A DNA stretch of 64,000 bases, taken from assembly GCA_018725565.1 (NCBI GenBank), contig QLUR01000006.1, positions 7,902 to 71,901 on the forward strand, given 5' to 3'. Below are positions 19,009-34,372 of this stretch, piece by piece. The DNA comes from Bacillota bacterium (GTDB lineage: Bacteria > Bacillota > Dethiobacteria > Dethiobacterales > Dethiobacteraceae). Below the pieces are notes generated by a model. The model was not told the DNA's origin. It worked only from the letters and a program-made list of their open reading frames with translations, and did no database searches. The position numbers were made by a program, and so were the translations under genes. The first letter of the stretch is position 1. Every line of letters starts with the position of its first letter.

Positions 19009-19012
19009 CGTT

Positions 19013-20368: not shown

Positions 20369-21156
20369 CTTAATCGAGGATCGCTTGGAGCGGAGGAGCG
20401 ATTCCCGGCGGGACAGTTTTTCATACAGTTAAAGCAAAAATATTGAAAGCCGATGAAGCCGGCTTGGTAGAGTTTCCAAAAGTGTTCGTCGGCAATCATT
20501 TTCTTTTGCTCTTCGGGAGGGCTTTCGAGGAGTTGGCTCCAGAAACGGATATTGGCAGCGATGCCGTACGGCTGGCTGTTTTTGAGGCATCGCATTAAGT
20601 TGGTTTTGCCTTCAGCTTCTAAGGCATTACCCGGGCATTTTTCAACGCAGAGATTGCAGTTGGTACAGATTTCTTCGGCCTGGGGGTCAGACGTAAGTTC
20701 CAAATCTGTGATAAGGCCGGCAAAGACGGCGCGGCTGCCAAGTCGCGGGTGGAGGACGAGATTGTTTCGGCCGAACTGGCCCAGACCGGCTGCCACAGCG
20801 GCGTGGCGCAGGGAGACATCACCAACGCATCCTTTTGTTTTGAAGCTCATTTCTAAAGGGTAAGAAAGCGGGATGGTCATGGCCTTGGCGCCAAATTCCC
20901 TCTGTATAAAGCGGGCTATTTTATAATTGCTGGTGCGGCCGAATTCCATAATATCCATGCGTCCGCCAAAAGCAATCTGCATATTTCCGCTTTCACAATT
21001 GTCCAATTCCTGCAATGCCATGATGACCAGTGATTTAGCGCCCGGAAAAATACTTTCCAAAGGGGGGGAGTTAGGGCTGACGTAGTTAGAAGCAGCGGCA
21101 AAACCCACATCATCCAAGCCCAGTTCCAAAGCATACCTTCTAATTTGTTCTTTCAC
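20365..21156 (-). CDS. short QueG/reductive-dehalogenase-superfamily 2x[4Fe-4S] protein
   Basis: ORF 20365..21162; QueG-like N-terminus (IRRYALELGLDDVGFAAA), CTNCNLCVEKCP and CFNCMKNCP cluster motifs; only ~263 aa, shorter than canonical QueG; GTG 21154-21156 preferred (GGAGGG SD). Confidence 0.55.
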   Translation of the reverse strand: MKEQIRRYALELGLDDVGFAAASNYVSPNSPPLESIFPGAKSLVIMALQELDNCESGNMQIAFGGRMDIMEFGRTSNYKIARFIQREFGAKAMTIPLSYPLEMSFKTKGCVGDVSLRHAAVAAGLGQFGRNNLVLHPRLGSRAVFAGLITDLELTSDPQAEEICTNCNLCVEKCPGNALEAEGKTNLMRCLKNSQPYGIAANIRFWSQLLESPPEEQKKMIADEHFWKLYQAGFIGFQYFCFNCMKNCPAGNRSSAPSDPRLS

Positions 21157-21217
21157 GGTCAATCCCTCCTCAAATATTTTTGCCTATCAGAAATAGGAAT
21201 TTGCTTTTCCTGCAACA

Positions 21218-21247
21218 AGTATAGCAATATTCTGTCATGGGTGTCAA
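21218..21247 (-). promoter_or_regulatory. extended -10 promoter upstream of the QueG-like gene (copy A of a duplicated 30-nt motif)
   Basis: minus strand GGTTGACACCC-atgacag-AATATTGCTATACT: TTGACA (21242-21247) - 18 nt - TGCTATACT (-10 at 21218-21223). Confidence 0.65.
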
Positions 21248-21276
21248 CCACGCAATTATCCACAACCTACTTTAAC

Positions 21277-21715
21277 TTACACAATATGGAATTGATTTAG
21301 GATCAGGCATCCATCGGAAAAAACCGCGGTGCGGCGCAGGTTCAGCCGCTCCTTGAGATTACCGAAAGCCTTTTCAATTAAATCCTTGCTGCGATAGATC
21401 TGCAGCGCTCTCATAGTATCTTTGATATCATTGGAAAGTAACGCAAAGTAACCATAGTTTTTTACGCTGCATCGATTGCCTCTTGATATGACTGTGCTGT
21501 TTGCACCTGCCGTACTTGCGCAGGTCATCGGCCTCATCGATTTCGAAATAGAAGCTGGTGACATCATATGTCATCTTGCGGGCGACTTCTTTGAAATGGG
21601 CGATGGGGTCGTCGTATTTCTTTTCCAGTTCATCCAGATAGCCCAGGGACTTGACGGTGCGGTCAGTAGAAATATTTTGTCTTTGGATTTCTGTATTTCT
21701 GGGCAATCACAATAA
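21277..21715 (-). mobile_element. degraded IS1634/IS4-like DDE transposase remnant (two out-of-frame fragments, both ends truncated)
   Basis: ORF 21428..21706 carries YDVTSFYFEIDEADDLRKYG (N-terminal IS1634-type block); ORF 21277..21567 carries GYFALLSN...ALQIYRSKDLIEKAFGNLKERLNLRRTAV (C-terminal block); ~440 bp instead of ~1.7 kb. Confidence 0.6.
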
Positions 21716-22035
21716 TGCCACATCTTTTGATCAGAAATTAAAAAATTATTCCCCTGAAGCCTTATGCCGCAAGGGATTTTTGCTTTCTGTATTTAGCTAA
21801 GCTGTCAAACTAACGAGTAAAACTTGGCAATAGCAGATACAAAAACGTCAATTTCCGGCCTCGCGGAACCCTTAAATATTTTCGCGCGTCAGCTCTGTGG
21901 CTTGACTTTATCATAGGTCAGGGAAAGAAATATATGTTATAATTATATAATATATTTTTAGTTTTTGATATAAAAACAGCAAAGAGAATTGCCTGAAATA
22001 TATTCAATTTTTTAAATGTAAAGGAGTGACACCTC

Positions 22036-24306
22036 TTGTTTCTACCTCTTGCAAGTCCAAGGGAAGTAAAAAAACGGTTGTGGATTGCCTTAGTGGGCAG
22101 TCATCTGCCCCGTAAATGTGGGATTGCCACCTTTGCAGCCAGTTTAAGCCGAGCACTAGAAGGTATAATGGGTCGTGATTCCACCTGGTTTGTTGCTTTA
22201 AACAATAATGAACACTATGATTACCCCTCTAAGGTTATTTATCAGCTCGAGCAAGACCGTCTGGAAGATTATCAAAACGCTGCTGAGATTATCAATTCCT
22301 CTGCGATAGATATAGTGTCGCTGCAACACGAGTTTGGACTTTTCGGAGGGCCTGATGGCATCCACATTGTGGAGTTTTTAAACCATTTACAAAAACCGGT
22401 GGTAACAACCTTTCATACCGTCTTGGAAAAGCCATCCTCAAGCCAGAAAAAGGCGTTCATCGAAGTAGCCGCCTTTTCTCAGGCACTGGTAGTAATGAAT
22501 GAACGGGCCATTGCCATTATGACAGACATATACAATATTTCCCATTCCAAGATCCACCTAATCCAGCACGGCGTTCCCGACGCATTTTATATCGACCCCT
22601 CTTACTATAAGCATCAGCTACAGCTGGCGGGGCGTTTTGTTATCCTGACCTTCGGCTTCCTTAGCCCCAACAAGGGGATCGAGATTATGCTGAAAGCCAT
22701 GCCATCTGTGGTTAAAAAGCATCCCGCAGTGCTGTATATCGTCTTAGGTGTCACCCACCCCACGGTGAAGAAGCGCAACGGTGAAGAATACCGGGAAAGC
22801 CTGGAAAACCTTGTAAATAACTTTGATATCGCTGAAAATGTGCTTTTTGTCGACGAGTTTGTGGACGACGACACTTTGGGCTACTACCTAGGGGCGGCAG
22901 ACCTGGTGGTCTGCCCATATCACTCTGAGGGCCAGATTACAAGCGGTGTCCTCAGTAACTCACTGGGCAAAGGGAAAGCCATTATTTCCACTCCATACCT
23001 GCATGCCCAAGTGGCGCTGGCCGGAGGGAAGGGCCGGCTGGTCAACTTTAATGATCCGGTGGGGATGTCTGAAGCAGTTCTGCAGCTGATTGAAAATCCC
23101 GAGGAGAGGCGTTCCCTGGCAGGACAGGCCTATATCGCAGGCCTGCAAATGAGCTGGAGCCGTGTTTCCAGGCAGTACTTGGCTGTATTTGAAGAGCTGA
23201 CGTCTCAGGCCATAGAAACAAATAAGCTAGATCGCGTGCATACTCTGCCAGTCATCAACATGAATTACCTTAAGACACACACAGATGATACGAGCATCGT
23301 CCAACATACTCTCTTTGGCATTTCTGACTATGCCCATAATTATTCCGCAGATGATGCGGCCCGCGCCATCGTAGTCTGTGCCCATTATTTTAACATGTTC
23401 AGGGATGAGTCAGTGCTCTTCCTAGTAGATAAGTACATGGCGTTTCTTTCCCATGCCAGGCAGGAAAGCGGCTGGTTTTACAACTATCTAAATTACCAGA
23501 AAGGATTTCCTGCGCAGGAGCTGAGCCAGGATACGTTTGGACGGTGTCTGTGGGGACTAGGTGCCGCGGCCAGTCTAGTACAGAACCGGGATCAGGGCAT
23601 GCTGGCCAGGGAACTATTAGAGGATAGCATACCACAGCTGGACAAGCTAACATACACTCGCGCCCAGGCATACAGCGCTTGCGGTCTGGGCAATTATCTG
23701 TTTCACTTTCCCGAGGCTGAAACTGCAGAGGATGGGCTCCGCTTAATCGTCGATTCTCTCCTGCAGCGTTACCGGGAAAATGCCTCAGGTTCTTGGCGCT
23801 GGTTTGAAAACTTCTTAACTTATGATAACGCCCGCCTTCCTTATGCTCTCTTACTCGGCTATAGGCATTTTTCCGAGCCCGCCTACTTAGAAACGGCTCT
23901 GGAAGCTTTGGATTTCCTCATCGACATCCAGTACCAGGAAGGCTATTTTGACCTAATCGGCAACCATGGTTGGTACGTAAAAGGAGGGGAAAAGGCCTTA
24001 TTCTGCCAGCAACCCCTCGATGCCGGTGCCTTAACGGAAGTCTGCCTCTTGGCATCTGCCTTGAGCGGTCTGCAGAAGTACCTGGATTTGGCCTATGCCG
24101 CTTTTCAATGGTACCTTGGTCGCAACCGATTAGGCAAGGCGCTCTACCATCCCTCCACGGGTTCCTGTTCAGATGGCCTGGCGGAGAACGGTTCCAGTAA
24201 AAATAAGGGAGCCGAGTCCACCATCTCTTTTCTGCTTGGACTGCTTGCCCTTTACTCTTGGGAACTTTTTGAGCGATTCCATTATGAAAAAGAGACTGCT
24301 ATTTAG
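22036..24306 (+). CDS. GT4-family glycosyltransferase fused to a ~360-aa C-terminal domain of unrecognised family
   Basis: 756 aa; residues ~15-390 GT4/GT-B like (IALVGSHLPRKCGIATFA, ...SEGQITSGVL...); remainder helix-rich (WGLGAAASL, TYDNARLPYALLLGY, QPLDAGALTEV) reminiscent of an (alpha/alpha)6 toroid; TTG start 9 nt after AAGGAG. Confidence 0.7.
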   Translation: MFLPLASPREVKKRLWIALVGSHLPRKCGIATFAASLSRALEGIMGRDSTWFVALNNNEHYDYPSKVIYQLEQDRLEDYQNAAEIINSSAIDIVSLQHEFGLFGGPDGIHIVEFLNHLQKPVVTTFHTVLEKPSSSQKKAFIEVAAFSQALVVMNERAIAIMTDIYNISHSKIHLIQHGVPDAFYIDPSYYKHQLQLAGRFVILTFGFLSPNKGIEIMLKAMPSVVKKHPAVLYIVLGVTHPTVKKRNGEEYRESLENLVNNFDIAENVLFVDEFVDDDTLGYYLGAADLVVCPYHSEGQITSGVLSNSLGKGKAIISTPYLHAQVALAGGKGRLVNFNDPVGMSEAVLQLIENPEERRSLAGQAYIAGLQMSWSRVSRQYLAVFEELTSQAIETNKLDRVHTLPVINMNYLKTHTDDTSIVQHTLFGISDYAHNYSADDAARAIVVCAHYFNMFRDESVLFLVDKYMAFLSHARQESGWFYNYLNYQKGFPAQELSQDTFGRCLWGLGAAASLVQNRDQGMLARELLEDSIPQLDKLTYTRAQAYSACGLGNYLFHFPEAETAEDGLRLIVDSLLQRYRENASGSWRWFENFLTYDNARLPYALLLGYRHFSEPAYLETALEALDFLIDIQYQEGYFDLIGNHGWYVKGGEKALFCQQPLDAGALTEVCLLASALSGLQKYLDLAYAAFQWYLGRNRLGKALYHPSTGSCSDGLAENGSSKNKGAESTISFLLGLLALYSWELFERFHYEKETAI

Positions 24307-24372
24307 GATGTGCGCTTCAATACAAACGACGAAAAGATTAAGTGAAAAATTTAGTGAGTGAGGGATGTTTAG

Positions 24373-24735
24373 ATGCCTTTAGGAAAAGACCTTCTGGAGT
24401 CGGCAGAGCCCCCTTGGGGAAAATGGGAAGTGCTGTTAAGTGAACCCGGTTACAAGGTAAAGCGCATCACCGTAAACCCTGGGCATAAGCTTAGCTACCA
24501 GCGCCACGCCAACCGGCAGGAGCACTGGGTCGCCGTGGCGGGAAATGGGATTATCATTCTAAACGATAAAGAAATAGCACTCCAGCCCGGAGAAGCGGTG
24601 GATATACCAGCAGAAGCTGCTCACCGCGCCATCAATCCCGGCGATGAACCTTTTATCTTTATTGAGGTGCAGCGCGGCAGCTACTTAGGTGAGGATGATA
24701 TCGTCCGCTTAGAAGACAGCTACGGAAGAACGTAA
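24373..24735 (+). CDS. cupin-type mannose-6-phosphate isomerase (type II PMI domain alone)
   Basis: 120 aa, WGKWEVL...YKVKRITVNPGHKLSYQRHANRQEHWVAVAG...HRAINPG, i.e. the C-terminal PMI cupin of bifunctional ManC/CpsB as a separate gene. Confidence 0.8.
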   Translation: MPLGKDLLESAEPPWGKWEVLLSEPGYKVKRITVNPGHKLSYQRHANRQEHWVAVAGNGIIILNDKEIALQPGEAVDIPAEAAHRAINPGDEPFIFIEVQRGSYLGEDDIVRLEDSYGRT

Positions 24736-24760
24736 AAAATGCTTCTTTTAGGAAGGATGA

Positions 24761-25840
24761 ATGAACATGACACGGTATGCCGTAATTATGGCTGGAGGGA
24801 GTGGAGAGCGCTTCTGGCCTTGGAGCCGAAGCCATCACCCCAAACAGTTCTTGAATCTGTTAGGGGAAAGTTCTCTTCTCCAACAAGCTTATGAGCGCAT
24901 TATAAATCTTTTTGACACACAGAACAGCTTGGTGGTGACAGGAAAAGAGCACGCTGCTCTAGCGAGGGAACAGCTCCCCAGCCTGCCGCAAGGAAACCTA
25001 ATTATAGAACCTCAAGGTAGAAATACCGCACCCTGTATCGGTCTGGCCGCCATGCATATTCGCAAGAGGGAACCGGATGCTACTATGCTGGTCTTCCCGG
25101 CAGACCACTTGGTGCAGGGGCAGGCAGAATTTCTCCGCTGCCTGGAAAAAGGACTACAACTAGCTTCTACTGCCGAGGTGCTAGTAACAATTGGCATCGT
25201 CCCAACCCGACCGGAGACGGGTTATGGCTATATTGAGCGGGAAAAAGACGCTCTTCCCGGCACCCCTTTAACGTTTAAAGTGCGACAGTTCGTGGAAAAG
25301 CCCACTACCAATATCGCCCTAGAATATTTGCGTGCGGGCAGATATTTTTGGAACAGCGGTATTTTTGCGTGGCAGACAGACTTGATTCTAAAGAAAATAG
25401 AACAGCAGCTGCCAGAGTTGTACCGAGGATTAACAGCAATTGCTGGGCAGATCGGTTCCGATGGAGAACAGGAAGCTGTAGAGAGTATTTTCCCTTCCCT
25501 CCCCAGCATTTCCATCGATTATGGAATAATGGAGAAATCTCAGGAGATTCTGGTTGTTCAGGGCGATTTCGGTTGGGACGACCTAGGAAGCTGGGCTGCC
25601 CTAGCGGCCTGTTTCCCCAAGGATCAGAACAAGAATGTGGTCAAAGGTGAATACGTGGGGATTGATACCACCGATTGCCTGATGTATGGTCAGGGTCTCC
25701 TCATTGCCACCTTAGGTGTGCAGGACTTAGTAATTGTGCAGGCGGGAAATGCTGTGTTGGTCTGCGCTAAGGAGCGTTCTCAGGATATTAAAAAGCTGGT
25801 ACAGTCACTCAAGGATCAGGGACTAGACGGATACCTGTAG
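24761..25840 (+). CDS. manC: mannose-1-phosphate guanylyltransferase
   Basis: 359 aa, AVIMAGGSGERFWPWSR nucleotidyltransferase loop, ...FPADH..., ...YFWNSGIF..., SIDYGIMEK. Confidence 0.85.
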   Translation: MNMTRYAVIMAGGSGERFWPWSRSHHPKQFLNLLGESSLLQQAYERIINLFDTQNSLVVTGKEHAALAREQLPSLPQGNLIIEPQGRNTAPCIGLAAMHIRKREPDATMLVFPADHLVQGQAEFLRCLEKGLQLASTAEVLVTIGIVPTRPETGYGYIEREKDALPGTPLTFKVRQFVEKPTTNIALEYLRAGRYFWNSGIFAWQTDLILKKIEQQLPELYRGLTAIAGQIGSDGEQEAVESIFPSLPSISIDYGIMEKSQEILVVQGDFGWDDLGSWAALAACFPKDQNKNVVKGEYVGIDTTDCLMYGQGLLIATLGVQDLVIVQAGNAVLVCAKERSQDIKKLVQSLKDQGLDGYL

Positions 25841-25865
25841 CCGAAAAAGGGAGGAGCGTTGGGCG

Positions 25866-27611
25866 GTGGAATACCGAAAAAAATATCAACAATGGCTCGA
25901 ATTTTCCGGAATGGATGAGGAACTGGGCCGGGAACTGACCAAGATTTCCCTTGACGAAAACGAAATAGCCAACCGCTTTTCCAAAGAGATAGCCTTTGGC
26001 ACCGGAGGAATCCGGGGTCGGATGGGTGTCGGAACAGCATTGATCAATATTTATGTAGTCCGCAAGGTTACGCTAGGTCTGGCGCGCTATCTTCTTAACG
26101 CTTGTCCGAAAGAGGGAAAACAACCTTCCGTGGTTATTGCCTGCGATACTAGGCGCAACTCGGAGCTGTTTGTTCGAGCAACGGCGGAAGTTTTAACCAA
26201 CCATGGAATTAAAGCCTGGGTTTTCCCAGAGCCTACTCCGACACCTCTCTTATCCTTTGCGGTCAGGGAACTGCAAGCTTCAGCCGGAGTAGTGATTACA
26301 GCCAGTCATAACCCCCCTGCTGACAACGGCTACAAAGTGTACGGACCAGACGGCGGGCAGATCACTGATTACCTGGCACACGCCATCACAGAGCATATTC
26401 TTCAGGTGGAAGATGCACTAACAATACCGGGTGGTGATCTGGAAGAGGCAGAAAAAAACGGGCTGTTTGAGCGAGTCGGTGCCGAGATAGATAACCGCTA
26501 TTATAAATTATTACAGGGTATATCTCTCAGCTCAACCTGGTGGGGCAAAGGCCCGCTGCCGGTAAGGGTTGTCTACACCCCCCTTCACGGCACAGGGGGC
26601 AAAGCAATTCCACGGGCGCTGAAAAATACCGGCGTTACTGAGCTCTTCCTCGTGTCAAAACAGTTAGAGATGGATCCCAACTGTTCCACAGTTCAATATC
26701 CAAATCCCGAAGATTGGGAAGTGTATAACATGGCCATAACCTTGGGGGAAAAAGAACAGGCAGACCTGTTATTGGCTACCGACTTAGACGCTGATCGTCT
26801 AGGTGCCGCTGTTCGTAACACCTCAGGGCGCTATGTCCCTCTAACCGGCAATCAGATTGGCTGCTTGCTGCTGGACTATATCCTTTCTCAAAGAAAAAAG
26901 CAGGAGAAGCTTCCCACTAACGGCATAGTACTCCAGACTGTGGTGACCTCGGAAATGGGGAAGGCCATCGCCGCAGACTACGGAGTGGAGATAATAGAAA
27001 CACTGACGGGGTTTAAATATATTGGCGAACAAATTAAAGAACGTGTCGATACAGGCCAAAATGTTTTTCTCTTTGGCTTTGAAGAGAGCTATGGCTACCT
27101 CGCAGGTGACTTCGTCCGAGATAAAGACGGTATTCAAGCCAGCCAGCTGGTAGCCGAGATGACCGCTTATTATAAATACAGAAAGATGACTCTCTTAGAT
27201 GCTCTAGAGCAACTGTTCTTGGCTCACGGCTATTTTCAAGAAGAACTGGTTAACCTTAAACTGGCTGAAGGTGAGCTTTATCGGGTAGAGCAGGTCATGA
27301 ACCAATTGCGCGGTGCCCATTTATCAGAACTGAACGGGCTAAAAATCATCCGCGCAGAAGATTACCTCAAACAGATAAGCACTGACGTACAGGGAAACCA
27401 AACACCGATTGGGCTGCCTGCCAGCAACGCGCTGAAATATATTTTGGATGATCTTTCCTGGTTCTGCATTCGCCCGTCAGGCACCGAACCAAAGATAAAG
27501 ATTTATCTAGGGGTAAAGGGAGATAGCGCCGATGTAGCTGCAGCTAAGCTTTCTACGCTCAGGGAAAATGTGTTGGCTCTGGTGGCCGGCCTAGAAACAC
27601 GCTCCCCGTGA
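25866..27611 (+). CDS. alpha-D-phosphohexomutase (phosphomannomutase/phosphoglucomutase, PgcA-like)
   Basis: 581 aa, catalytic loop TASHNPPADNGYK, metal loop DLDADR, sugar loop GFEESYG, phosphate loop RPSGTEPK; GTG start after GGGAGGAG. Confidence 0.85.
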   Translation: MEYRKKYQQWLEFSGMDEELGRELTKISLDENEIANRFSKEIAFGTGGIRGRMGVGTALINIYVVRKVTLGLARYLLNACPKEGKQPSVVIACDTRRNSELFVRATAEVLTNHGIKAWVFPEPTPTPLLSFAVRELQASAGVVITASHNPPADNGYKVYGPDGGQITDYLAHAITEHILQVEDALTIPGGDLEEAEKNGLFERVGAEIDNRYYKLLQGISLSSTWWGKGPLPVRVVYTPLHGTGGKAIPRALKNTGVTELFLVSKQLEMDPNCSTVQYPNPEDWEVYNMAITLGEKEQADLLLATDLDADRLGAAVRNTSGRYVPLTGNQIGCLLLDYILSQRKKQEKLPTNGIVLQTVVTSEMGKAIAADYGVEIIETLTGFKYIGEQIKERVDTGQNVFLFGFEESYGYLAGDFVRDKDGIQASQLVAEMTAYYKYRKMTLLDALEQLFLAHGYFQEELVNLKLAEGELYRVEQVMNQLRGAHLSELNGLKIIRAEDYLKQISTDVQGNQTPIGLPASNALKYILDDLSWFCIRPSGTEPKIKIYLGVKGDSADVAAAKLSTLRENVLALVAGLETRSP

Positions 27612-27994
27612 TGATTTTTATAATTCACCCCTGATAATATGATTTCCGGTATCCTCATCATTAGCTTCAGCAGCCCTTGCCAGCATCTGCACAGTATAGG
27701 CAAACGCATTCTCCGCATCTTTGATTTGCGCTGATAAAGCCCAAGAAAAAGTATCTGCATCACCAGATTTTCTAAAACAGAAAGATCGTAACGGGTGATC
27801 TCCCTGCCATAATTAAGAGCCAGAAGGCAAAGAGTATTGTCGATGTGAAAAACCATATTTTCCAGCCAAGGGCATCCAGCGAATCCTTGAGTTTCAGCTG
27901 AAATTCAGAATAGTTAAATTCCCCCTCTAAAAGAATTTAAAACGTTTTCGGCTACTTGTAGGAAACTCTCCTTGATTTGACGAATTAATTCCAT
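27612..27994 (-). pseudogene. decayed minus-strand gene remnant between the two halves of the glyco island
   Basis: ATG 27992-27994 with GGAGGTG SD opens MELIRQIKESFLQVAENVLNSFRGGI then two in-frame stops; further readable pieces in other frames (e.g. ...FRKSGDADTFSWALSAQIKDAENAFAYTVQMLARAAEANDEDTGNHIIRGEL*); family not recognised. Confidence 0.35.
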
Positions 27995-28202
27995 GAGAAA
28001 CTTCACCTCCGAGTGGCTACTTTCGTAGTTACTCATCCTGGATGGCGGATGGTGAGGTCTCTCTTCTTTGTGATGCAGGGGCTTTCTTGCAAAACATCCT
28101 ACAGTAAGTTTACTCTAACCTGGCGTATATTTCTTTCTTTGTTGACACTATCTGCACAAGAGCTACGCTGGGAGGAAGAAATGAGCGAGAAGCTAAAAAT
28201 AA

Positions 28203-31200
28203 ATGTTTGAGGTGAAGACAGTGACAGAATTGGAAAGCTTGTATCATCAATCATTATCCCGCGCTTTGGAAAAAGCTGCCGGAATGGAAAAGGTGGATTT
28301 AGTGGTGGGCATCCCCTTTCTAAATGGAGGCGAGGACGCGCAAATTGTTTTGTCCATTCTAGAAGCAGGGCTTGACACCTTTTACCCCGACCTGAAAGCT
28401 TTAATAGTCTGCGCCGCCTGCCCTTCTCTTTCTAGTCTGGAGAACTACGAATCTGAGCGCATATTGCTAACTCGCCTAGACAAAGCCTTGTCGGGTAGAG
28501 GATGGGTGGTGCGCAGCTTAATGGACGTGGCGAACAGATTGACGGCAGACTTAGTGATTGTGGAACCCAGCCTTTTGGCTGCAAAGAGCAATGGTTCACC
28601 GGAAGGCCTGACATCGGACTGGATTAAACTTATGTATCAGCCCGTTCGCGACGGAAGTGCTCAATTTGTGCTGCCCCGCTTTAAATTATCCCATATTAGC
28701 AATAGCATCGGCGACCACCTAGTCTTCCCCCTGCTGGCATCTCTCTACAATCTGGAACTTAAAGGGTGCCTAGACGCCGGGATGACCATTTCTCGCCAAC
28801 TATTGCCCAATCTTCTTGAAGAAGTGCCTATTTGGTCTGGTGAGGTCTATGAATATGGCATAAACTACTGGCTCACAATGCGTGCGTTAGAGCTAACAGC
28901 TGATATCACCGAAGTGTTGCTGGGCACCAAGCCAAAAGCCGCTCTGCCAGTGGGGCTGAATTATATGTTTAGCCAGGCAGTCCATGCGGTTTTTCAGGCT
29001 ATCGGCAAAGGCCAGGATGTCTGGAAACATAATCCCCAGGCTGTGCGCTCAGTGCTAACAATTGGTCCGAGGCATGATCTGTTTCTCCAGGAGGTGACGC
29101 TTGAGCCACGGCCGCACCTAAATCAGCTCCGCAGGGGCTTTAGCCGCTATTACGAGGCGGTCTGGTCGCGTATTTTTTCCGAAGAGCTATGCATCCAGCT
29201 CAAAGAGGCGGCTACAGCTAGCGAAGAAGACTTCTCTTTCCCATCTGCCCTTTGGGCTCAGTTGGTCTACGAATCGCTCATCGCCTATCACTTTATTTCT
29301 ATGCTGGCAAAAGAAGATCTGGCCAATAGCCTGACACCTCTTTTTGAAGGAAGGTTGGCTGGCTTTTTGAAGGAGATTTCCACCCATACCCACTGCGACC
29401 TAAGCGAAGCTAGCTCTGAGCTTACAGTCTGCCCGTTTAACGCTAGGAACATCCTGGAAACGCAAAACGATGCCTTTATTAGCCGCAAACAAGTCTTTCT
29501 GGAAAAATGGCTCCACCACAAAGTGGCGCTGCTGCCCTTTTTACCGGAAATCGCCTATTGGGAATACATTCCCGGCATCCCCATTATCCTGCCCCACCTA
29601 GTCCGGTCAGCATCGGGGAAAAGTGCTCACGTGGCAGGAATTTACGAACGGCTTTTACAGGAATATAAGGAAGAATTCGAAACTTTTGCCCAACAGACAC
29701 TAAATCTCTCCGCTGAGGATGGCTCTGAAAAGCTGGGAACTGCCATACGTAGCTTGGTGGAACAAGTAGAAAAAGATCTGGATCAAATCCTGCTTCCGGG
29801 GGATCTTCACACCTTAGAGGGAATGCAAAAGGTGGCAGATCGTATTTTTGCACTCTACCCTGCCCCTAAAAGCTTCTCTCTTAAAGCAGAGGTGGCCGCC
29901 CGGTTACTGCGGGAACACCCTCCCCGTAACCTTATCACTCTCTGGGGCTACCACAATACGGATGAACTCCTTAAACACCATAACCCACTAGATGTTCTGG
30001 CACTTGCTTCCTGGTCCGAAGTCTCTAAATATTCCACATGGAACAGTGAGTGGCTCAAAGAACAATTGAGGCCTGAACATTTGGAAATATCTCCCATCCG
30101 ACCCCTAGTGGTAAATTACAGTGACTTTCCAGCCCTATCAGGAATGGGGGAAGCAGCCTCGCTGAGCTACCTTACCAGCCGTGTTGTAATTAGCAACCGG
30201 AGGAAAGGGAGCGGCGGCAGTTTCCCCAAAACCCGCATTCTAACCATTATTTTAAAGAGCATCATCGAGTCTGAGCAGTTCGGCAGCATCTGGGAATCAT
30301 TTAAAAAGCAGTCTGGTAAAGATTTTGGCCCAAAGGTTGTTAACTCCATCGAAGGACACTGGGGAGTCAGTCTATTTTCTGGCCACAGTATTTTTGAAAA
30401 TATACAGCAAGAAATTCTGAAGAGCAAACTGTTGGAAATTTCCCGACAAGACTGGGGCAACACAAACGACACGGTGGAAGAAGCTCGTAATCACTTAGCC
30501 CAGATGGCAGCAGTCTACCACCTGGGGCTAACTTTGCCAGACGGCTATTTTATCACCTGCTCGCTCTGGAGTTGGGCCAGCTACAGCTTTAAAGGAGGGA
30601 AGGGCATTCCGACTCCCCTTTCTCTCATGGTCGAGCGGCGCTGGTTCAGCAGCGAATTGTTTTCCCGTTGTTATGAACACGTGATAAGCAGTCGCAATGA
30701 AGTTTTACCAAAAATAGCAGCACTAATGGGGCAGGGAAGGGAGAGCGAGAATCTAGCAGCCCTTTTCCTGGGAGCACCGCCTGACGGTATGGAAATCATC
30801 ATCGATCAGAAAATTGAAAAAGACCTCCCGCAGGCAGGCAAGCTGATTCGCTCTCCCTTCAACCCAATGTTAACCCTAATAGCAGAGCACAACTGGGAGT
30901 CGAAGTACGTTTTAAACTGCGGGGCCATCCGCGTCAAGGGGAATGTTTACATTTTTTATCGGGCTGTGGGTGAAGACGGTATCTCACGCATCGGGCTGGC
31001 CATTAGTAAAAACGGACTACAGGTAGATGAGCGTTTGCCTGAGCCGGTCTTTGGCCCTGCCCACGAGAGTGAAAAAATGGGGTGTGAAGATCCCCGGCTT
31101 ATCGCCATCGAAGGTCGCGTTTACATGCTTTATACTGCCTACGACGGCATTACTCCTCAGATTGCCCTGGCATCTATCGCCGAGGATGATCTTGTCCAAC

Positions 31201-31787
31201 AGCGCTGGCAACACTGGCAGCGCCACGGACTGGTCTTTCCGGGTTTCATCAATAAGAACGCAGTATTGTTCCCAGAACGGTTTAACGGCAAACTGGCCAT
31301 GTACCACCGCATCGCTCCCAGCATCTGGGTAACCTTTGCCAGCAACTTTGACACCCCCTGGCCCCGGGAAGGGCATAGGCTTATCATGGGCAGCCGCTCT
31401 GGGATGATGTGGGACGCTGTTAAAATCGGATCAGGTGCACCTCCCCTGAAAACCCGTTTTGGTTGGCTATTAATCTATCACGGAGTGGACTACGGCTTCC
31501 GCTATCGGCTTGGTGTTTTCCTCACTGCCCTAGACGATCCGGCGAAGCTCATCTACCGCTCCCCAAACCCCATCCTAGAGCCGGAAAAGTCTTATGAAAT
31601 TGGTGTTTCAGGCCAGAGTTGGGTGCCAAACGTGGTCTTTACCTGCGGAGCAGTCTCAGCTATTGACAAAGATATCTTAGATGAAGCTGATGAAATCCTT
31701 GTTTATTACGGCGGGGCGGACACCGTCATCGGTGTCGCTTCTGCCCGGGTAGCCGACCTTATCCCGGCGCGATTTCGTCAAGGATGA
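28203..31787 (+). CDS. 1194-aa fusion protein: ~870-aa N-terminal region of unknown family + C-terminal GH130 (beta-mannoside phosphorylase-type) domain
   Basis: C-terminal ~310 aa align by eye with the 322-aa GH130 two genes downstream (GCEDPRL / IEDPRI, NAVLFPERFNGK / NVVLFPEKFDGR, KIGSGAPP / KIGPGATP, WLLIYHGV / WLQIYHGV, NVVFTCG, YYGGADTV / YWGGADKV); start ambiguous (ATG 28203 or GTG 28221 after GAGGTG). Confidence 0.75.
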   Translation: MFEVKTVTELESLYHQSLSRALEKAAGMEKVDLVVGIPFLNGGEDAQIVLSILEAGLDTFYPDLKALIVCAACPSLSSLENYESERILLTRLDKALSGRGWVVRSLMDVANRLTADLVIVEPSLLAAKSNGSPEGLTSDWIKLMYQPVRDGSAQFVLPRFKLSHISNSIGDHLVFPLLASLYNLELKGCLDAGMTISRQLLPNLLEEVPIWSGEVYEYGINYWLTMRALELTADITEVLLGTKPKAALPVGLNYMFSQAVHAVFQAIGKGQDVWKHNPQAVRSVLTIGPRHDLFLQEVTLEPRPHLNQLRRGFSRYYEAVWSRIFSEELCIQLKEAATASEEDFSFPSALWAQLVYESLIAYHFISMLAKEDLANSLTPLFEGRLAGFLKEISTHTHCDLSEASSELTVCPFNARNILETQNDAFISRKQVFLEKWLHHKVALLPFLPEIAYWEYIPGIPIILPHLVRSASGKSAHVAGIYERLLQEYKEEFETFAQQTLNLSAEDGSEKLGTAIRSLVEQVEKDLDQILLPGDLHTLEGMQKVADRIFALYPAPKSFSLKAEVAARLLREHPPRNLITLWGYHNTDELLKHHNPLDVLALASWSEVSKYSTWNSEWLKEQLRPEHLEISPIRPLVVNYSDFPALSGMGEAASLSYLTSRVVISNRRKGSGGSFPKTRILTIILKSIIESEQFGSIWESFKKQSGKDFGPKVVNSIEGHWGVSLFSGHSIFENIQQEILKSKLLEISRQDWGNTNDTVEEARNHLAQMAAVYHLGLTLPDGYFITCSLWSWASYSFKGGKGIPTPLSLMVERRWFSSELFSRCYEHVISSRNEVLPKIAALMGQGRESENLAALFLGAPPDGMEIIIDQKIEKDLPQAGKLIRSPFNPMLTLIAEHNWESKYVLNCGAIRVKGNVYIFYRAVGEDGISRIGLAISKNGLQVDERLPEPVFGPAHESEKMGCEDPRLIAIEGRVYMLYTAYDGITPQIALASIAEDDLVQQRWQHWQRHGLVFPGFINKNAVLFPERFNGKLAMYHRIAPSIWVTFASNFDTPWPREGHRLIMGSRSGMMWDAVKIGSGAPPLKTRFGWLLIYHGVDYGFRYRLGVFLTALDDPAKLIYRSPNPILEPEKSYEIGVSGQSWVPNVVFTCGAVSAIDKDILDEADEILVYYGGADTVIGVASARVADLIPARFRQG

Positions 31788-31840
31788 CGTGATTCTAAAA
31801 CTCCTCCGGATTAACCTGTTGGGAAGGGGATTTTTTGAAA

Positions 31841-32857
31841 ATGAGAATTGCCCTGCTTTCTCCTATCGCCTGGAGGACTCCACCCCGCAACTATGGACCT
31901 TGGGAACGTGTAGTTTCACTAATTACAGAAGGCCTGCAAAAAAAGGGGATAGATGTTACCCTGTTTGCCACGGCTGACTCACTAACAGAGGGAAAGCTCC
32001 ATGCTGTAGTGCCACGCCCTTACGAAGAAGACAAATTGCTTGATCCAAAGGTATGGGAGTGTCTTCATATCTCCGAGATGTTTGAAAGAGCTAAAGGTTT
32101 TGATCTAATCCATAACCATTTCGACTTTTTGCCACTCACCTACTCCAGGTTGACCAGAACGCCCGTCCTCACTACTATCCACGGCTTTTCTAGTCCGAAG
32201 ATACTGCCTGTATACAAAAAATATAACGACACAACTTTTTATGTGTCCATCAGTAACGCTGATCGCTCACCGGAACTGGATTATATCGCTACCGTTTATC
32301 ATGGTATCGATATTGAAAACTTCGCATTTCAGGAAACACCTGAAGATTACCTGCTCTTTTTAGGGCGCATCCATCACGACAAAGGTGTCAGTGAAGCGAT
32401 TCAGATTGCCCGTAAAGTCGGCATGAAACTGATCCTTGCCGGGATTATTCAGGATGAAGCTTATTTTAAAGAACGAGTTGAACCTTTCCTTGATGGTTCC
32501 CAAATCAACTATGTAGGTACTGTAACTCCTGAGTTGAGAAATGAGTTGCTTGGGAAAGCCTTTGCTTTTATCCATTCAATCAATTTCAATGAGCCTTTTG
32601 GCTTATCTGTGGTGGAAGCTGGCGCCTGTGGAACACCAGTTGTGGCTTTTAACAAGGGCTCTATGCCGGAGATAATTGTGGATGGCGAAAACGGGTTTCT
32701 CGTTGATGATGTTTCTTCCGCAGTGGAGGCGATAGGTCAGCTAAAAACCATATCACGTTATAAGTGCCGGGCAATAGTGGCAGAAAAGTTTTCACAAGAG
32801 CAAATGGTGGAAAATTATCTGGCAGTGTACCGGCAGATAATAGAAAAAAACAATTAA
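31841..32857 (+). CDS. GT4-family glycosyltransferase (small, ~338 aa)
   Basis: ORF 31835..32857; MRIALLSPIAWRTPPRNYGPWERV N-terminus, C-terminal EPFGLSVVEAGACGTPVVAFNKGSMPEII (E-x7-E region) typical of GT4; ATG 31841 preferred. Confidence 0.8.
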   Translation: MRIALLSPIAWRTPPRNYGPWERVVSLITEGLQKKGIDVTLFATADSLTEGKLHAVVPRPYEEDKLLDPKVWECLHISEMFERAKGFDLIHNHFDFLPLTYSRLTRTPVLTTIHGFSSPKILPVYKKYNDTTFYVSISNADRSPELDYIATVYHGIDIENFAFQETPEDYLLFLGRIHHDKGVSEAIQIARKVGMKLILAGIIQDEAYFKERVEPFLDGSQINYVGTVTPELRNELLGKAFAFIHSINFNEPFGLSVVEAGACGTPVVAFNKGSMPEIIVDGENGFLVDDVSSAVEAIGQLKTISRYKCRAIVAEKFSQEQMVENYLAVYRQIIEKNN

Positions 32858-32896
32858 CGGTGGCGCTAATTGGTAACCCCGGAGGAGGATCTAATT

Positions 32897-33838
32897 GTGC
32901 TGAAACGGGAATCCGTAGTAAAAAGATATGAAAAAAATCCTATCCTTACCAAGAATGATGTGCCTTATCCGGTAGTTACAGTTCATAACGCCGGAGTAGT
33001 CAAAGCAGACGGCCGCTATTGGATGATTTTTCGGTCACATCTTTATAACGGACGCTCCATTTTGGGCTTGGCAGAGAGTTCCGACGGCTACCTGTTCACT
33101 GTCAGATCAGAGCCATTTATGACACCTGCACAAGAAGGCATTTTTGCCGAATATGAGGAATATGGAATAGAAGATCCACGAATCTGCAAAATCGACCAGG
33201 ATTTTGTCATTACTTACAGTGCCTATTCAAGGCACGGTGTAAGGGTCGCATTGGCTAAGACCCGGGATTTTAAGGCCGTGGAAAGAATAGCGCTGATTAC
33301 TCAGGCAGACCAGCGCAACGTTGTTCTTTTTCCGGAAAAGTTCGATGGCCGTTTTGTCCGCCTAGATCGCCCACACACAGAAATCAACCCTTGGTCAATT
33401 TGGATTTCATACTCGCCTGATTTAATTCACTGGGGCAACTCAAAGGTAATCGTCAAGCCGGAAGTCTACCATTGGGATGAAATGAAAATCGGCCCCGGAG
33501 CTACCCCCTTTAAGACCGACAAAGGCTGGCTGCAGATCTATCATGGCGTCTTTCGCACAATGGACGGCGCAGTGTACAGACTCGGCGCAATTCTGCATGA
33601 TCTGAATGATCCTTCCCTGGTTCTCGGGGTGGCTGACGAATGGATTCTTGAGCCTGAAGACCCTTGGGAGGTAACCGGGTATGTGCATAATGTGGTTTTT
33701 ACCTGTGGCGCGACTCCTGAAGAAGATGGAACGGTAAAAATCTATTGGGGAGGGGCGGACAAGGTAATGTGCGTGGGAACAGCAAACGTTAGCGACTTGG
33801 TTGCTTTGTGCTTGGAAAAACCAAGAAATCCCGTTTGA
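32897..33838 (+). CDS. GH130 family glycoside phosphorylase/hydrolase (PH1107-related 'glycosidase')
   Basis: ORF 32870..33838; KNPILT..., GIEDPRI, FPEKFDGRFVRLDRP, KIGPGATP, WLQIYHGV, YRLGAILHDLNDP, NVVFTCG; GTG 32897 sits 8 nt after GGAGGAGG. Confidence 0.8.
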   Translation: MLKRESVVKRYEKNPILTKNDVPYPVVTVHNAGVVKADGRYWMIFRSHLYNGRSILGLAESSDGYLFTVRSEPFMTPAQEGIFAEYEEYGIEDPRICKIDQDFVITYSAYSRHGVRVALAKTRDFKAVERIALITQADQRNVVLFPEKFDGRFVRLDRPHTEINPWSIWISYSPDLIHWGNSKVIVKPEVYHWDEMKIGPGATPFKTDKGWLQIYHGVFRTMDGAVYRLGAILHDLNDPSLVLGVADEWILEPEDPWEVTGYVHNVVFTCGATPEEDGTVKIYWGGADKVMCVGTANVSDLVALCLEKPRNPV

Positions 33839-33984
33839 GTTGTTTATTTAAATGTTAAGCAGCCCCTGATTTAAACTGTTTCAGCCCGCGCTGTATTCAG
33901 CATTTCACGGGCGTGCTCCGCGCGGCCTGCTGTTTTGCCTCGCCGCCTAGACTTTGCAAGTCTTTATGCACTAAACTAGACGTA

Positions 33985-34020
33985 AGGAGCCCCCAGCCGG
34001 GGGCTCCTGCTTATTTTTTC
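33985..34020 (+). terminator. intrinsic terminator closing the plus-strand glyco operon
   Basis: AGGAGCCCCC-agcc-GGGGGCTCCT (33985-34008) followed by GCTTATTTTTT; overlaps the stop of the convergent ferritin-like gene. Confidence 0.8.
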
Positions 34021-34316: not shown

Positions 34317-34372
34317 GCCAGTTCCTCCTCTTAGCATTATTTACCTATAATTTATTCCACACGTATGTTCAA

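Follow-up and report, generated by a model that had tools for sequence, protein, structure and literature searches.

A characterised gene cluster related to the locus analysed here is known from Thermoanaerobacter sp. X-514. It contains two GH130s, a mannose-1-phosphate (Man-1-P) guanylyltransferase and a GT4 together with a GH5 and an ABC importer, and has been read as a salvage system (PMC4264767). All GH130 phosphorylases with known activity are cytoplasmic enzymes with soluble sugars as substrates (PMC7660257, PMC4599007). Those of the beta-1,2 type make oligomannan from Man-1-P (PMC4264767, PMC12814180), are reported to have weak GDP-mannose (GDP-Man) transferase activity and have as their linkage determinant a Glu-Asp pair where beta-1,4 enzymes carry Tyr-Asp (PMC12814180). 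In this study we describe a seven-gene island (g1 to g7) in a 64,000-nucleotide stretch of bacterial DNA (the window). We consider it about an even bet (roughly 0.5) that this cytoplasmic module builds and phosphorolytically dismantles a soluble intracellular mannoside.

Extent and origin of the island

The features that define the island and its edges are:

20374..33985, no strand: genomic island, inserted in comparison with close relatives, ~13.6 kb, from empty sites and deviating GC, GC3 and tetranucleotides
20365..21162, minus strand: Fe-S ORF, 265 aa, cargo of the insertion outside the mannoside module
21277..21706, minus strand: two IS1634-family transposase fragments, an internally deleted remnant (NCBIfam NF033559)
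33985..34008, no strand: GC-rich palindromic hairpin, terminator of a rubrerythrin-like gene (terminator scan: 10-bp stem, 8/10 pairs GC, T-run)

The island DNA is foreign in composition and was horizontally acquired. Its GC content is 0.4825, compared to 0.553 and 0.547 outside, which makes it the lowest-GC 12.7-kb interval of the whole 64 kb. Its GC3 is 0.509 as opposed to 0.616 outside (Mann-Whitney p = 6e-7), and in tetranucleotide usage it correlates with the remaining window at 0.57, compared to 0.91-0.94 elsewhere. The lower-GC island of the first-pass annotation was thus borne out by GC and tetranucleotide profiles as well as by synteny, since the segment is missing from two close relatives, L085 (AspRS 90% identical) and L086. 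Across the junction, L085 8233-8630 corresponds to window 34382-33986 and L085 8635-11797 to window 20373-17192. With two close relatives showing an empty site, the true insertion runs from about 20374 to 33985; the native terminator of the rubrerythrin gene lies on one side of it and the promoter of HisRS on the other. A copy of the cluster with 89-90% nucleotide identity was found in a host with flanks of 31-44% GC.

The first-pass annotation had also called the island IS-flanked, with an IS1634-like wreck as its left and a strong terminator as its right boundary. Both elements exist, but the island is not IS-flanked. The two transposase fragments match NF033559 weakly (E 2.1e-8, profile 356-404, and E 1.1e-7, profile 123-166, of 483 positions) and have no Pfam match; they represent a single IS remnant inside the insertion, the left end of which lies at ~20374. 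The hairpin is native flank outside the island: it has been preserved where L085 has its empty site, and it belongs to the rubrerythrin-like gene (34011-34337, minus strand), as a terminator that is probably bidirectional. The Fe-S ORF, missing from the empty sites of L085 and L086, has no Pfam match at E <= 1e-5, and its 69 metagenome homologues lie in unrelated contexts. The seven intact plus-strand genes (22036-33838) were confirmed; they form the longest plus-strand block, but not the sole one, since 39294-41795 and 48902-51510 are plus strand too.

Domain architecture of the seven genes

22036..23220, plus strand: g1 N-terminal GT4 (GT-B) domain, PimA-like (PF00534, 59 bits; Foldseek 2gej)
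23233..24306, plus strand: g1 C-terminal (alpha/alpha)6 six-hairpin domain (AF2 pLDDT 85; Foldseek 7tem)
24373..24735, plus strand: g2, type-II PMI cupin, 120 aa (PF01050, 114 bits; TIGR01479 positions 362-467)
24761..25840, plus strand: g3, mannose-1-phosphate guanylyltransferase (PF00483 and PF22640; TIGR01479, 343 bits, positions 3-349)
25866..27611, plus strand: g4, four-domain alpha-D-phosphohexomutase, PMM/PGM type (PF02878, PF02879, PF02880, PF00408)
28203..29582, plus strand: g5 residues 1-460, mannosylglycerate-synthase (MGS)-like GT-A and helical subdomain (Foldseek 2y4j, 2bo4, 2bo7)
29583..30782, plus strand: g5 residues 461-860, GH130-associated helical middle domain (AF2 secondary structure)
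30840..31787, plus strand: g5 C-terminal GH130 domain (end-to-end phmmer matches, 9fj8 1e-56 and 7fip 1e-53; Foldseek 9fj8 3e-19)
31835..32857, plus strand: g6, canonical GT4, 340 aa, intact EX7E (PF00534, 87 bits; EPFGLSVVE in the translation)
32870..33838, plus strand: g7, stand-alone GH130, 322 aa (PF04041, 193 bits; 1vkd 7e-56; 9fj8 1e-47)

Pfam and NCBIfam matches support the annotated cupin PMI, GDP-mannose pyrophosphorylase and phosphohexomutase (g2, g3, g4); the NCBIfam matches of g4 are all sub-threshold and its substrate assignment is putative. The two GT4s (g1, g6) and two GH130 domains (g5, g7) likewise stand, whereas in both g1 and g5 fused domains had been overlooked. In g1 the GT4 domain, structurally closest to PimA with GDP-Man (2gej; Foldseek E 2e-14, TMt 0.76), has an invariant Leu306 in place of the second Glu of EX7E in the conserved alignment columns. 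It is followed by a six-hairpin domain resembling YPO2471 (7tem; Foldseek E 2.6e-13, TMt 0.70; profile against PDB 1e-19), with weaker profile matches to AGE epimerase and GH76 alpha-1,6-mannanases; its homologues bear PF06662, PF07944 or PF07470.

In g5 the GH130 domain is preceded by two further domains. The N-terminal residues 1-460 have no Pfam match but group by Foldseek with the mannosylglycerate synthase of Rhodothermus (2y4j, 2bo4, 2bo7; E 5e-9 to 1e-7, TMt 0.70-0.73). Motif alignment shows both metal ligands replaced, the DxD by E121-P-S and the His by Lys. P158-R159 is kept, and its Arg aligns with a position that we take to be glycerate-binding in MGS. Among 665 relatives of this domain (HMMER), stand-alone proteins of ~420 aa reach PF21969 MGS_GT and, weakly, GpgS, and others are fused to HAD phosphatase, TreT or DUF4147/MOFRL glycerate-kinase-family domains. 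The helical middle domain has no Pfam or PDB sequence match; its arrangement with GH130 is also present in P0198, P0207, P0212 and P0204.

The GH130 domain of g5 aligns end-to-end with Teth514_1788 and Teth514_1789 (1e-56 and 1e-53; 39% identity to Teth514_1788) and is 35% identical to g7. Both keep the catalytic Asp within a Glu-Asp pair (E962-D963 in g5, E101-D102 in g7), the +1-site Arg (R920 and R55) and a set of basic phosphate-site residues; a signal peptide is missing from both. Invariant in the g5 alignment are also K1018, R1036, K1074 and H1093; in g7 alignment gives R149, R167, K206 and H225. At the site reportedly tied to beta-1,2 specificity by Cuskin et al., g7 has Arg rather than Lys, and the PDB entry it matches best is TM1225, a Tyr-Asp protein.

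Conservation, cellular location and inversion

The combination of g1 with g5 and/or g6 and g7 recurs, usually alongside GDP-Man genes, in Bacillota, Sumerlaeota, Acidobacteriota (Blastocatellia) and Planctomycetota (Scalindua), at L002, L003, L005, L006, L008, L009, L010, L011, L012, L082 and L083. The Blastocatellia and Scalindua modules are without g5, orthologues of g6 in other phyla reach 63-69% identity, and in L011 and L083 a g2-type cupin is fused to a g6-type GT4. HSP20 genes adjoin the module in L010 and L083, and several carriers (Dethiobacter, Anoxynatronum) are of alkaline or saline origin. With dN/dS values of 0.06-0.25 for all seven genes, the module is under purifying selection.

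All seven proteins look cytoplasmic from their sequences: as annotated before, there is no transmembrane segment or signal peptide, and the Kyte-Doolittle scan gave no 19-residue stretch at 1.6 in any of them. The island also has no exporter, flippase or polyprenyl-phosphate transferase, in agreement with the export-free cluster proposed earlier. Export genes are likewise missing from nine further contexts in several phyla, and no wzx/wzy, ABC glycan exporter or polyprenyl-phosphate transferase adjoins the module at any of the 11 loci named above. Neither the island nor the 11 related loci show a solute-binding protein, permease, PTS or secreted glycosidase beside the module.

The first-pass annotation missed that g1-g4 are inverted compared to every relative. 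The intergenic stretches involved are:

21923..22035, plus strand: half next to g1 of the intergenic region from which g1 and g5 ancestrally diverged (blastn alignments with L005 and L009 stop at 21923-21925)
28121..28202, plus strand: g5-proximal half of the same region (blastn: L005 6058-6136; L009 from 9882 onward)
27585..28120, no strand: decayed spacer moved along by the inversion, no supported intact ORF

The gap 27612-28202 holds 536 nt of decayed sequence; the spacer has no match in L005 or L009, no Pfam match and broken translations.

A possible intracellular mannoside cycle

A cytoplasmic cycle is a plausible reading of the island. The PMI-type cupin g2, g4 and g3 would convert fructose-6-P via Man-6-P and Man-1-P to GDP-Man. 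From this, retaining-fold transferases (the GT4s of g6 and g1, possibly the MGS-like domain of g5 without its metal site) might add alpha-mannose or another alpha-hexose to a small acceptor and so supply a primer. Enzymes with GT4 or MGS-type GT-A folds retain the anomeric configuration and make alpha-mannosides from GDP-Man, whereas GH130 substrates are beta-mannosides. Hence the beta-links must come from the GH130 domains themselves, by either reverse phosphorolysis with Man-1-P or a weak GDP-Man transferase activity. For this reason the earlier division into GT4s that build and GH130s that recycle does not fit as it stood; horizontal acquisition, cytoplasmic proteins and missing exporters are supported. 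The g5 GH130 domain and g7 would act as beta-1,2-type mannoside phosphorylases that lengthen the primer from Man-1-P (weakly GDP-Man) and, under high phosphate or carbon demand, strip mannoses as Man-1-P, which would rejoin the pool via g4 and g3. As putative accessory modules, the g1 six-hairpin domain and the helical middle part of g5 would serve in binding or trimming. Candidate products include a reserve oligomer and a solute.

Several points speak against such a cycle. Given the motif losses in g5 (both metal ligands) and g1 (the second EX7E Glu), two out of three domains of transferase type may have no catalytic activity or may depend on a different donor. The Arg-for-Lys exchange of g7 and its top match to a Tyr-Asp protein fit poorly with beta-1,2 activity, phosphate levels in vivo normally favour phosphorolysis, and the inversion has moved g1-g4 away from the ancestral divergent promoter, so that expression in this host is only presumed. 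Moreover, PMI and phosphohexomutase reactions are reversible and the same genes could serve catabolism. Transporters could sit elsewhere in the genome. In a salvage module, imported beta-mannosides would be turned into Man-1-P by the GH130s and used as GDP-Man for unrelated GT4 alpha-mannosylation, or in glycolysis via phosphohexomutase and PMI. We regard this salvage as rather unlikely, even though the identity of g5 to Teth514_1788 and the Thermoanaerobacter cluster, with its two GH130 paralogues, Man-1-P guanylyltransferase and GT4 (PMC4264767), point to it. A complete de novo GDP-Man route is present, uptake genes and secreted glycosidases are missing at all loci compared, and the tight linkage or fusion of GH130s and transferases across phyla (g5; g6 and g7; GT4-cupin fusions) would be unexpected for simple catabolism.

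GT4 enzymes often use lipid or polyprenyl-linked acceptors, and PimA, to which the g1 GT4 is structurally most similar, transfers mannose from GDP-Man to a lipid as a peripheral-membrane protein that has no transmembrane helices; the weak best NCBIfam matches of g6 include Agl16 and EPS transferases. The module could hence assemble or edit an envelope glycoconjugate (mannosylated glycolipid, lipoglycan, S-layer or secondary cell-wall glycan) at the cytoplasmic face, with GH130s that trim or proof-read and with flipping or export genes elsewhere. This seems quite improbable to us, as none of the contexts examined links the module to a priming phosphotransferase, flippase, polymerase or ABC exporter, the characterised GH130 phosphorylases use soluble cytoplasmic sugars (PMC7660257, PMC4599007), and the descent of the g5 N-terminus from MGS/GpgS enzymes, with its HAD phosphatase, glycerate-kinase-family and TreT partners, points to small soluble acceptors. 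The same ancestry and partners, the MGS fold and the retained P158-R159 would suit a special case of the intracellular cycle without oligomer: a mannosylglycerate-like compatible solute, perhaps with one beta-mannose, that would accumulate in response to salt, high pH or heat and be degraded on relief by the GH130s and the six-hairpin domain. The alkaline or saline settings and the HSP20 neighbours would fit, although both links are anecdotal. We hold this version to be equally improbable, since the metal ligands that are the hallmark of active MGS/GpgS enzymes are missing from the g5 subfamily, the cluster has no glycerate-forming or phosphatase gene, and Blastocatellia and Scalindua do without g5.

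Comparison with the known system

In conclusion, we identified two unusual fusion proteins (g1 and g5) in a self-contained, export-free mannose module of an anaerobic Firmicute. The Thermoanaerobacter sp. X-514 cluster differs by its ABC importer and GH5, whereas the island has no importer or secreted glycosidase. However, both have a pair of GH130 paralogues along with a GT4 and a Man-1-P guanylyltransferase, and the earlier claim of a composition without any characterised bacterial counterpart was too strong in view of that cluster (PMC4264767).

A transferred genomic island at a recognisable empty site

A genomic island, with sharper boundaries than the first-pass annotation could set, lies among housekeeping genes: those for AspRS, HisRS and MgtE flank it on its left side, a rubrerythrin-like gene with a NuoE/NuoF/glutamate-synthase-like set on its right. 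GC content is 0.4825 in the island compared with 0.553 and 0.547 in the flanks, the lowest value of any 12.7-kb window within the 64 kb. Mean GC3 of its seven module genes (g1-g7) is 0.509 versus 0.616 in 36 other ORFs (Mann-Whitney p = 6e-7), and the tetranucleotide correlation of 4-kb windows to the rest of the window is 0.57-0.69 inside the region versus 0.85-0.95 elsewhere. All three profiles deviate and a flat profile was not seen, so the lower-GC island proposed from the sequence stands.

The empty site was located via AspRS homologues. The AspRS of the window has an identical counterpart (100%) in a MAG labelled Syntrophomonadaceae bacterium and shares 72-73% identity with the Dethiobacter alkaliphilus enzyme. 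In the close relative L085 (AspRS 90% identical) the glutamate-synthase-like, rubrerythrin, HisRS and AspRS genes are directly adjacent, and blastn aligns its positions 8233-8630 with window 34382-33986 and 8635-11797 with window 20373-17192. A three-way junction alignment places an insertion of ~13.6 kb (20374-33985) precisely where the terminator hairpin of the rubrerythrin gene gives way to the HisRS promoter (TTGACA...TAGAAT). The segment is likewise missing from a second close relative, L086 (AspRS 81%), so that synteny leaves the island absent from both.

Features within the insertion (window coordinates, strand, description; g1-g7 assigned with Pfam and NCBIfam)
20365-21162, -, Fe-S ORF, 265 aa with two Cys-rich Fe-S motifs
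21277-21706, -, IS1634 remnant, two short ORFs with weak matches to non-adjacent parts of the transposase profile
22036-24306, +, g1, 756 aa, GT4 plus ~360 unassigned C-terminal residues
24373-24735, +, g2, 120 aa, cupin of the phosphomannose isomerase (PMI) type
24761-25840, +, g3, 359 aa, mannose-1-phosphate guanylyltransferase
25866-27611, +, g4, 581 aa, four-domain phosphohexomutase
28203-31787, +, g5, 1194 aa, GH130 confined to the last ~310 residues
31835-32857, +, g6, 340 aa, GT4
32870-33838, +, g7, 322 aa, GH130

Because the junction lies at 20374-33985, the hairpin at 33985-34008 (GC-rich, 10-bp stem, T-run on the + strand) is native, the Fe-S ORF is included and the IS remnant is internal. 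Two boundary claims of the first-pass annotation have to be withdrawn: the hairpin, taken there for the island's own terminator, is native flank by the L085 junction alignment, and the island is not IS-flanked, as the remnant, on its profile matches a putative internally deleted IS1634 transposase, sits inside the insertion and away from its edge. A rubrerythrin-like gene on the - strand ends right beside the hairpin, which could stop both this gene and the incoming g7 transcript.

No target duplication is present in the junction alignment, and a repeat search for IS ends and target duplications around the island and its inverted block gave short chance pairs only. No tRNA genes were found in the window, and no integrase or intact mobility genes, only the wrecked IS1634. 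Rfam (20500-34600, E <= 1) returned no match and PADLOC no defence families. The Fe-S ORF has no counterpart at the L085 and L086 empty sites. Its 69 metagenome homologues (54-89% identical) lie in unrelated contexts where the mannoside module is not linked to them, and in an empty-site scan 0/69 of these loci share either window flank; at the best locus, L013 (88% nucleotide identity), similarity ends at 21181 and 20403.

Two further differences concern the flanks. A NuoE-like 2Fe-2S gene (34373-34846, - strand) separates the glutamate-synthase-like gene from the rubrerythrin-like one; it is missing in L085, where those two are neighbours, and is a second indel near the island. In L086 the HisRS-AspRS pair is inverted (5560-8679 versus window 17262-20371), with the flanks on either side unchanged in orientation; L085 is oriented as the window.

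The same cluster was found on a metagenome contig, L009, at 89-90% nucleotide identity, where the cluster has ~50% GC and its flanks 31-44%. A third copy, L005, shares 90-93% nucleotide identity and has a GC content of 0.484. A cassette of ~48-50% GC thus resides in hosts of ~38% and ~55% GC, which is direct evidence of its horizontal transfer.

REARRANGEMENT

Inversion inside the island and selection on its genes

Among seven full-length g5 relatives with the g1 side recovered, g1 is divergent from g5 in six (the divergent loci are named as L002-L006, L008, L009 and L010), and g2-g4, where present, come after g1. In the seventh, L082, the order is different: g1-g2-g3-g5, all co-directional. 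Relative to L005 and L009, window 21923-27584 is inverted, and what was the ancestral g1/g5 intergenic region now lies in two parts, 21923-22035 and 28121-28202. A stretch of 536 nt (27585-28120) separates g4 from the g5-proximal part and is missing from L005 and L009, which are collinear in other respects; every reading frame in it is broken, Pfam gives no match, and it probably derives from the original flank and was moved along by the inversion. An HD-GYP-like pseudogene had been considered at this place and was dropped since Pfam gave no support. Since the IS1634 remnant lies next to the second breakpoint, it is a reasonable inference that the inversion was IS-associated.

The genes g1-g7 are intact ORFs arranged head-to-tail on the + strand over 22036-33838. 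This is the longest plus-strand run in the window, though not the sole one. With all seven ORFs at full length and dN/dS values of 0.06-0.25 across them (versus L005 and L009), a decaying island could be ruled out. A hydropathy scan (Kyte-Doolittle >= 1.6 over 19 residues) of all seven proteins found no such stretch and no hydrophobic N-terminus, which bears out the earlier impression that they have neither transmembrane segments nor signal peptides.

Conservation of the module across genomes

Related loci and their module content
L008 (Anoxynatronum buryatiense): type-I PMI, g6, g3, g1, g5
L010: g4-g3-g2-g1, divergent from g5
L082: g1-g2-g3-g5
L002, L003 (MAGs labelled Sumerlaeota): g1-g5
L011 (Blastocatellia): g1 homologue (42-44% identity) adjoining a ~322-aa GH130 and a g6-type GT4
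L012 (Scalindua): content as L011
L083: content as L011

Judged by these contents, what recurs is g1 with one or two [transferase + GH130] pairs and the GDP-mannose enzymes. Beside the module in the listed loci we found neither a flippase, polymerase, ABC glycan exporter or priming phosphotransferase nor a sugar importer or secreted glycosidase. The absence of export genes pointed out for the window therefore extends to related contexts: the orthologous clusters in these loci do not adjoin wzx, wzy or ABC exporters.

In L011 (13726-15126) and L083 (13107-14459) the g6-type GT4 is fused to a PMI-type cupin, the GT4 being 63-69% identical to g6 and the cupin 54-58% identical to g2. These fusions suggest that the cupin may work with the transferase instead of, or besides, having a free isomerase role. 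The g7 orthologue of L083 is 72% identical to g7, whereas the L011 GH130 reaches only 41%. Some carriers have odd labels: clusters of 61-88% protein identity (L001, L002, L003 and the protein P0002) occur in MAGs that bear the names Thermoplasmata archaeon, Candidatus Sumerlaeota and Dehalococcoidia; either the cassette has been transferred widely or, being mobile, it was mis-binned. The L009 copy is without g3 and g4 and retains a 108-nt remnant of the g3 5'-end (6937-7043), which abuts a Phd/YoeB toxin-antitoxin pair (6425-6944). HSP20 genes lie near the module on the unrelated contigs L010 (17234-17734) and L083 (15645-16614), and one is also near the L085 empty site (2409-2849); this proximity may be coincidence.

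The transferases g1 and g6

Both transferases have GT4 domains: g6 matches PF00534 with 87 bits and keeps an intact EX7E motif (EPFGLSVVE), and the N-terminal domain of g1 matches it with 59 bits. In a model of g1 (pLDDT 85), residues 1-395 adopt a GT-B fold, for which Foldseek ranks PimA with GDP-Man highest (E 2e-14). The EX7E motif is not intact in g1 (E298-GQITSGV-L306), an invariant Leu replacing the second Glu in 30 homologues; this Glu contacts the nucleotide ribose. Residues ~400-750 form an (alpha/alpha)6 barrel, best matched in Foldseek by the uncharacterised YPO2471 (7tem, E 2.6e-13). Pfam found nothing for the g1 C-terminus at E <= 10; profile searches otherwise gave weak matches to N-acylglucosamine 2-epimerase and GH76 alpha-1,6-mannanases, and homologues of this part are labelled C5-epimerase, GH127 or GH88 in Pfam.

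The GH130 domains of g5 and g7

The GH130 domain of g5 (PF04041, 173 bits) aligns end-to-end with both Teth514_1788 (9fj8; phmmer 1e-56, residues 4-295 of 303) and Teth514_1789 (1e-53). In the predicted structure it belongs with the GH130 family and has the five-bladed beta-propeller fold, with Teth514_1788 at the top of the Foldseek matches (E 3e-19, 39% identity, TMt 0.73). Its residues R920, E962-D963, K1018, R1036, K1074 and H1093 are invariant in 28 homologues, and D963, K1018, R1036, K1074 and H1093 align with their equivalents in Teth514_1788 and Teth514_1789. The g7 protein (PF04041, 193 bits; best PDB match TM1225, 7e-56) is 35% identical to the g5 domain and, when aligned with Uhgb_MS, Teth514_1788 and TM1225, shows D102, R149, R167, K206 and H225. 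GH130 hydrolases have lost the basic phosphate-binding residues, with Glu in their place (PMC4599007). As the catalytic Asp and the basic phosphate-site residues are kept, both domains look like phosphorylases, and the phosphate site questioned in the first-pass annotation is retained in proteins without a signal peptide.

In beta-1,2-specific GH130s a Glu precedes the catalytic Asp and an Arg occupies the +1 site, and Tyr marks beta-1,4 enzymes (PMC12814180); a Lys is a further beta-1,2 determinant (PMC4599007). All of these determinants (E962, R920, K1018) are present in g5, and we confidently predict a beta-1,2 type. In g7, E101-D102, where TM1225 has Tyr-Asp, and R55 at the +1 site fit the same linkage; g7 is probably of the beta-1,2 type too, although Arg149 in place of Lys and the best PDB match being the Tyr-Asp protein TM1225 leave room for doubt.

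The N-terminal and middle domains of g5

Pfam assigned no family to g5 residues 1-300, 301-600 or 601-880 at E <= 10, and PDB sequence and profile searches with residues 1-880 gave no match. We modelled g5 with 28 homologues (pLDDT 75) and compared it with the PDB using Foldseek. The N-terminal ~430 residues match mannosylglycerate synthase (MGS) of Rhodothermus marinus (2y4j, 2bo4 and 2bo7; E 5e-9 to 1e-7, TMt 0.70-0.73, ~430 aligned columns), and the predicted structure contains a GT-A fold that is followed, on its C-terminal side, by a helical subdomain. When residues 1-880 were searched exhaustively with HMMER, 665 relatives were returned, among them many stand-alone proteins (~400-440 aa) that align with region ~20-400. 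These stand-alone homologues reach PF21969 MGS_GT with 32-37 bits (cutoff 27), which g5 itself does not, and weakly match the glucosyl-3-phosphoglycerate synthase model (NF010496). They also keep DxD and K-(I/V)-H, positions that align with the two metal ligands of MGS; g5 has E121-P-S and K-P-K there, and the 28-member g5 family (E/D)-P/x-x without the second Asp and K-P-K/R replacing the His motif. The motifs G-R-G-W, D-W-(I/V)-K and L-P-R-F are kept. Given the lost metal motifs and the missing Pfam match, we describe the domain as derived from MGS/GpgS-type enzymes and outside the family proper. It may work without a metal, with a different donor, or purely as a binding domain.

Elsewhere the MGS-like module has other fusion partners, namely a TreT-type GT4, a HAD phosphatase or DUF4147+MOFRL (glycerate-kinase family), and some giant proteins (3100-4250 aa) contain it as well (fusion and giant proteins P0180, P0222, P0242, P0193, P0257 and P0289). 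An ancestry in small-molecule glycoside synthesis would fit the TreT, HAD and DUF4147+MOFRL fusions. The middle domain of g5 (~445-860) is helical, and sequence searches of Pfam and the PDB gave no match for it. It recurs in [middle + GH130] proteins without GT-A, which marks it as an accessory domain of GH130. We considered a relationship to the six-hairpin domain of g1 and found no similarity.

Proposed function

The gene content is consistent with a cytoplasmic pathway that produces GDP-Man and Man-1-P for use on a soluble acceptor. A cytoplasmic cycle, as the first-pass annotation proposed, is reasonable; the part of that idea in which the transferases make the link that the GH130s cleave is forbidden by stereochemistry. 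GT4 enzymes and GT-A folds of the MGS type are retaining, GH130s are inverting and act on beta-mannosides, so the bond that GH130s cleave cannot come from the transferase domains. We propose instead, as the most economical scheme, that the transferases would supply an alpha-linked primer or cap, that the GH130 domains would attach and detach beta-1,2-mannose in a reversible reaction with Man-1-P and Pi, and that Man-1-P set free by them would be recycled via g4 and g3. We put the probability of this scheme at about one half. Characterised beta-1,2 GH130s do add and remove mannose reversibly in vitro and have weak GDP-Man transferase activity (PMC4264767, PMC12814180).

Other roles can be imagined for the same genes. 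Salvage or catabolism in the style of Thermoanaerobacter seems unlikely to us, given that importers are consistently missing, and assembly of an envelope glycoconjugate at the inner face of the membrane is more doubtful still, with no lipid-carrier or export gene across eleven contexts. A compatible solute would be a narrower form of the main scheme. The MGS ancestry of the g5 N-terminus speaks for it, as do alkaline or saline habitats and the HSP20 genes, which are anecdotal links; with the g5 metal site lost, we hold this version to be rather improbable. Within the broader scheme of an alpha-linked primer and reversible beta-1,2-mannosylation, we also offer a tentative wider picture, which is possible but on the doubtful side: diverse anaerobes might have an undescribed bacterial counterpart of Leishmania mannogen, in which MGS-like GT-A+helical+GH130 fusions with a GT4-six-hairpin protein would prime a small glycerate-type or sugar acceptor and reversibly build a cytosolic beta-1,2-mannoside from Man-1-P/GDP-Man, as an energy-conserving carbon reserve or stress solute, with the cassette moving between phyla.

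If the scheme is true, bacteria hold an intracellular beta-mannoside store or solute that is made and recovered without ATP per sugar; to our knowledge, a store of that kind has so far been known only from Leishmania. Likewise g5, a GH130 with an MGS-like domain devoid of its metal site, and g1, a GT4 with a six-hairpin domain, would represent enzymes of a new architecture; since chemical synthesis of beta-mannosidic bonds is difficult, both are of practical interest. At least four phyla contain this compact, mobile module, and its carriers include cultured Anoxynatronum species (A. buryatiense and A. sibiricum; L008 and P0091).

Comparison with known systems

The closest characterised gene cluster is Teth514_1785-1796 of Thermoanaerobacter sp. 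X-514 (Chiku et al. 2014), read as salvage of external beta-1,2-mannan (PMC4264767). Both clusters combine two paralogous GH130s, a Man-1-P guanylyltransferase and a GT4; the Thermoanaerobacter GH130s are beta-1,2-mannoside phosphorylases, one of which, Teth514_1788, is the 39% identical match of the g5 GH130 domain. The Thermoanaerobacter cluster has, however, a five-gene ABC importer and a GH5, whereas the window cluster has no transporter or GH5, and none was found in the island or in eleven related loci. Unlike Thermoanaerobacter, the window cluster has an extra PMI and phosphohexomutase, an MGS-like GT-A and helical domain on the g5 GH130, and a six-hairpin domain on the g1 GT4. The dual phosphorylase/transferases Uhgb_MS and Teth514_1788 (PMC12814180) share the Arg/Glu-Asp +1/-1 signature and the phosphate-site basic residues with both domains, but are stand-alone proteins of ~300-350 aa, while g5 has 880 extra N-terminal residues.

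The closest functional analogy is the mannogen cycle of Leishmania (Sernee et al. 2019, cited in PMC12814180 and PMC10913872), which, as these papers summarise it, couples cytosolic, GDP-Man-fed beta-1,2-mannoside synthesis with phosphorolysis. According to the same summaries, five-bladed propellers related to GH130 act there too, without export; in contrast to the GH130 enzymes of the island they belong to GT108, are single-domain and require no GT4 or GT-A partner, and their product has been demonstrated, whereas the window cluster is known here from its genes. The g5 N-terminus resembles MGS (GT78) and GpgS (GT81) in its GT-A and helical subdomain and in the motifs G-(K/R)-G, DW(I/V) and P-R, which line up; its subfamily differs by the change of DxD to E-P-S and of the metal-binding His to Lys/Arg, and by the fused GH130. 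CAZy is cited as listing a few uncharacterised 'GH130-GT81' modular proteins with no function reported in that account (PMC7660257). By description these combine GH130 and a GpgS-type GT-A in one polypeptide as g5 does, and they may be the g5 family. Our literature search found no description of the module, of the g5 and g1 architectures, or of a bacterial intracellular beta-mannoside cycle. Clusters of GH130 and GDP-mannose genes were already known; new here are the two uncharacterised fusion architectures and their wide, mobile distribution.
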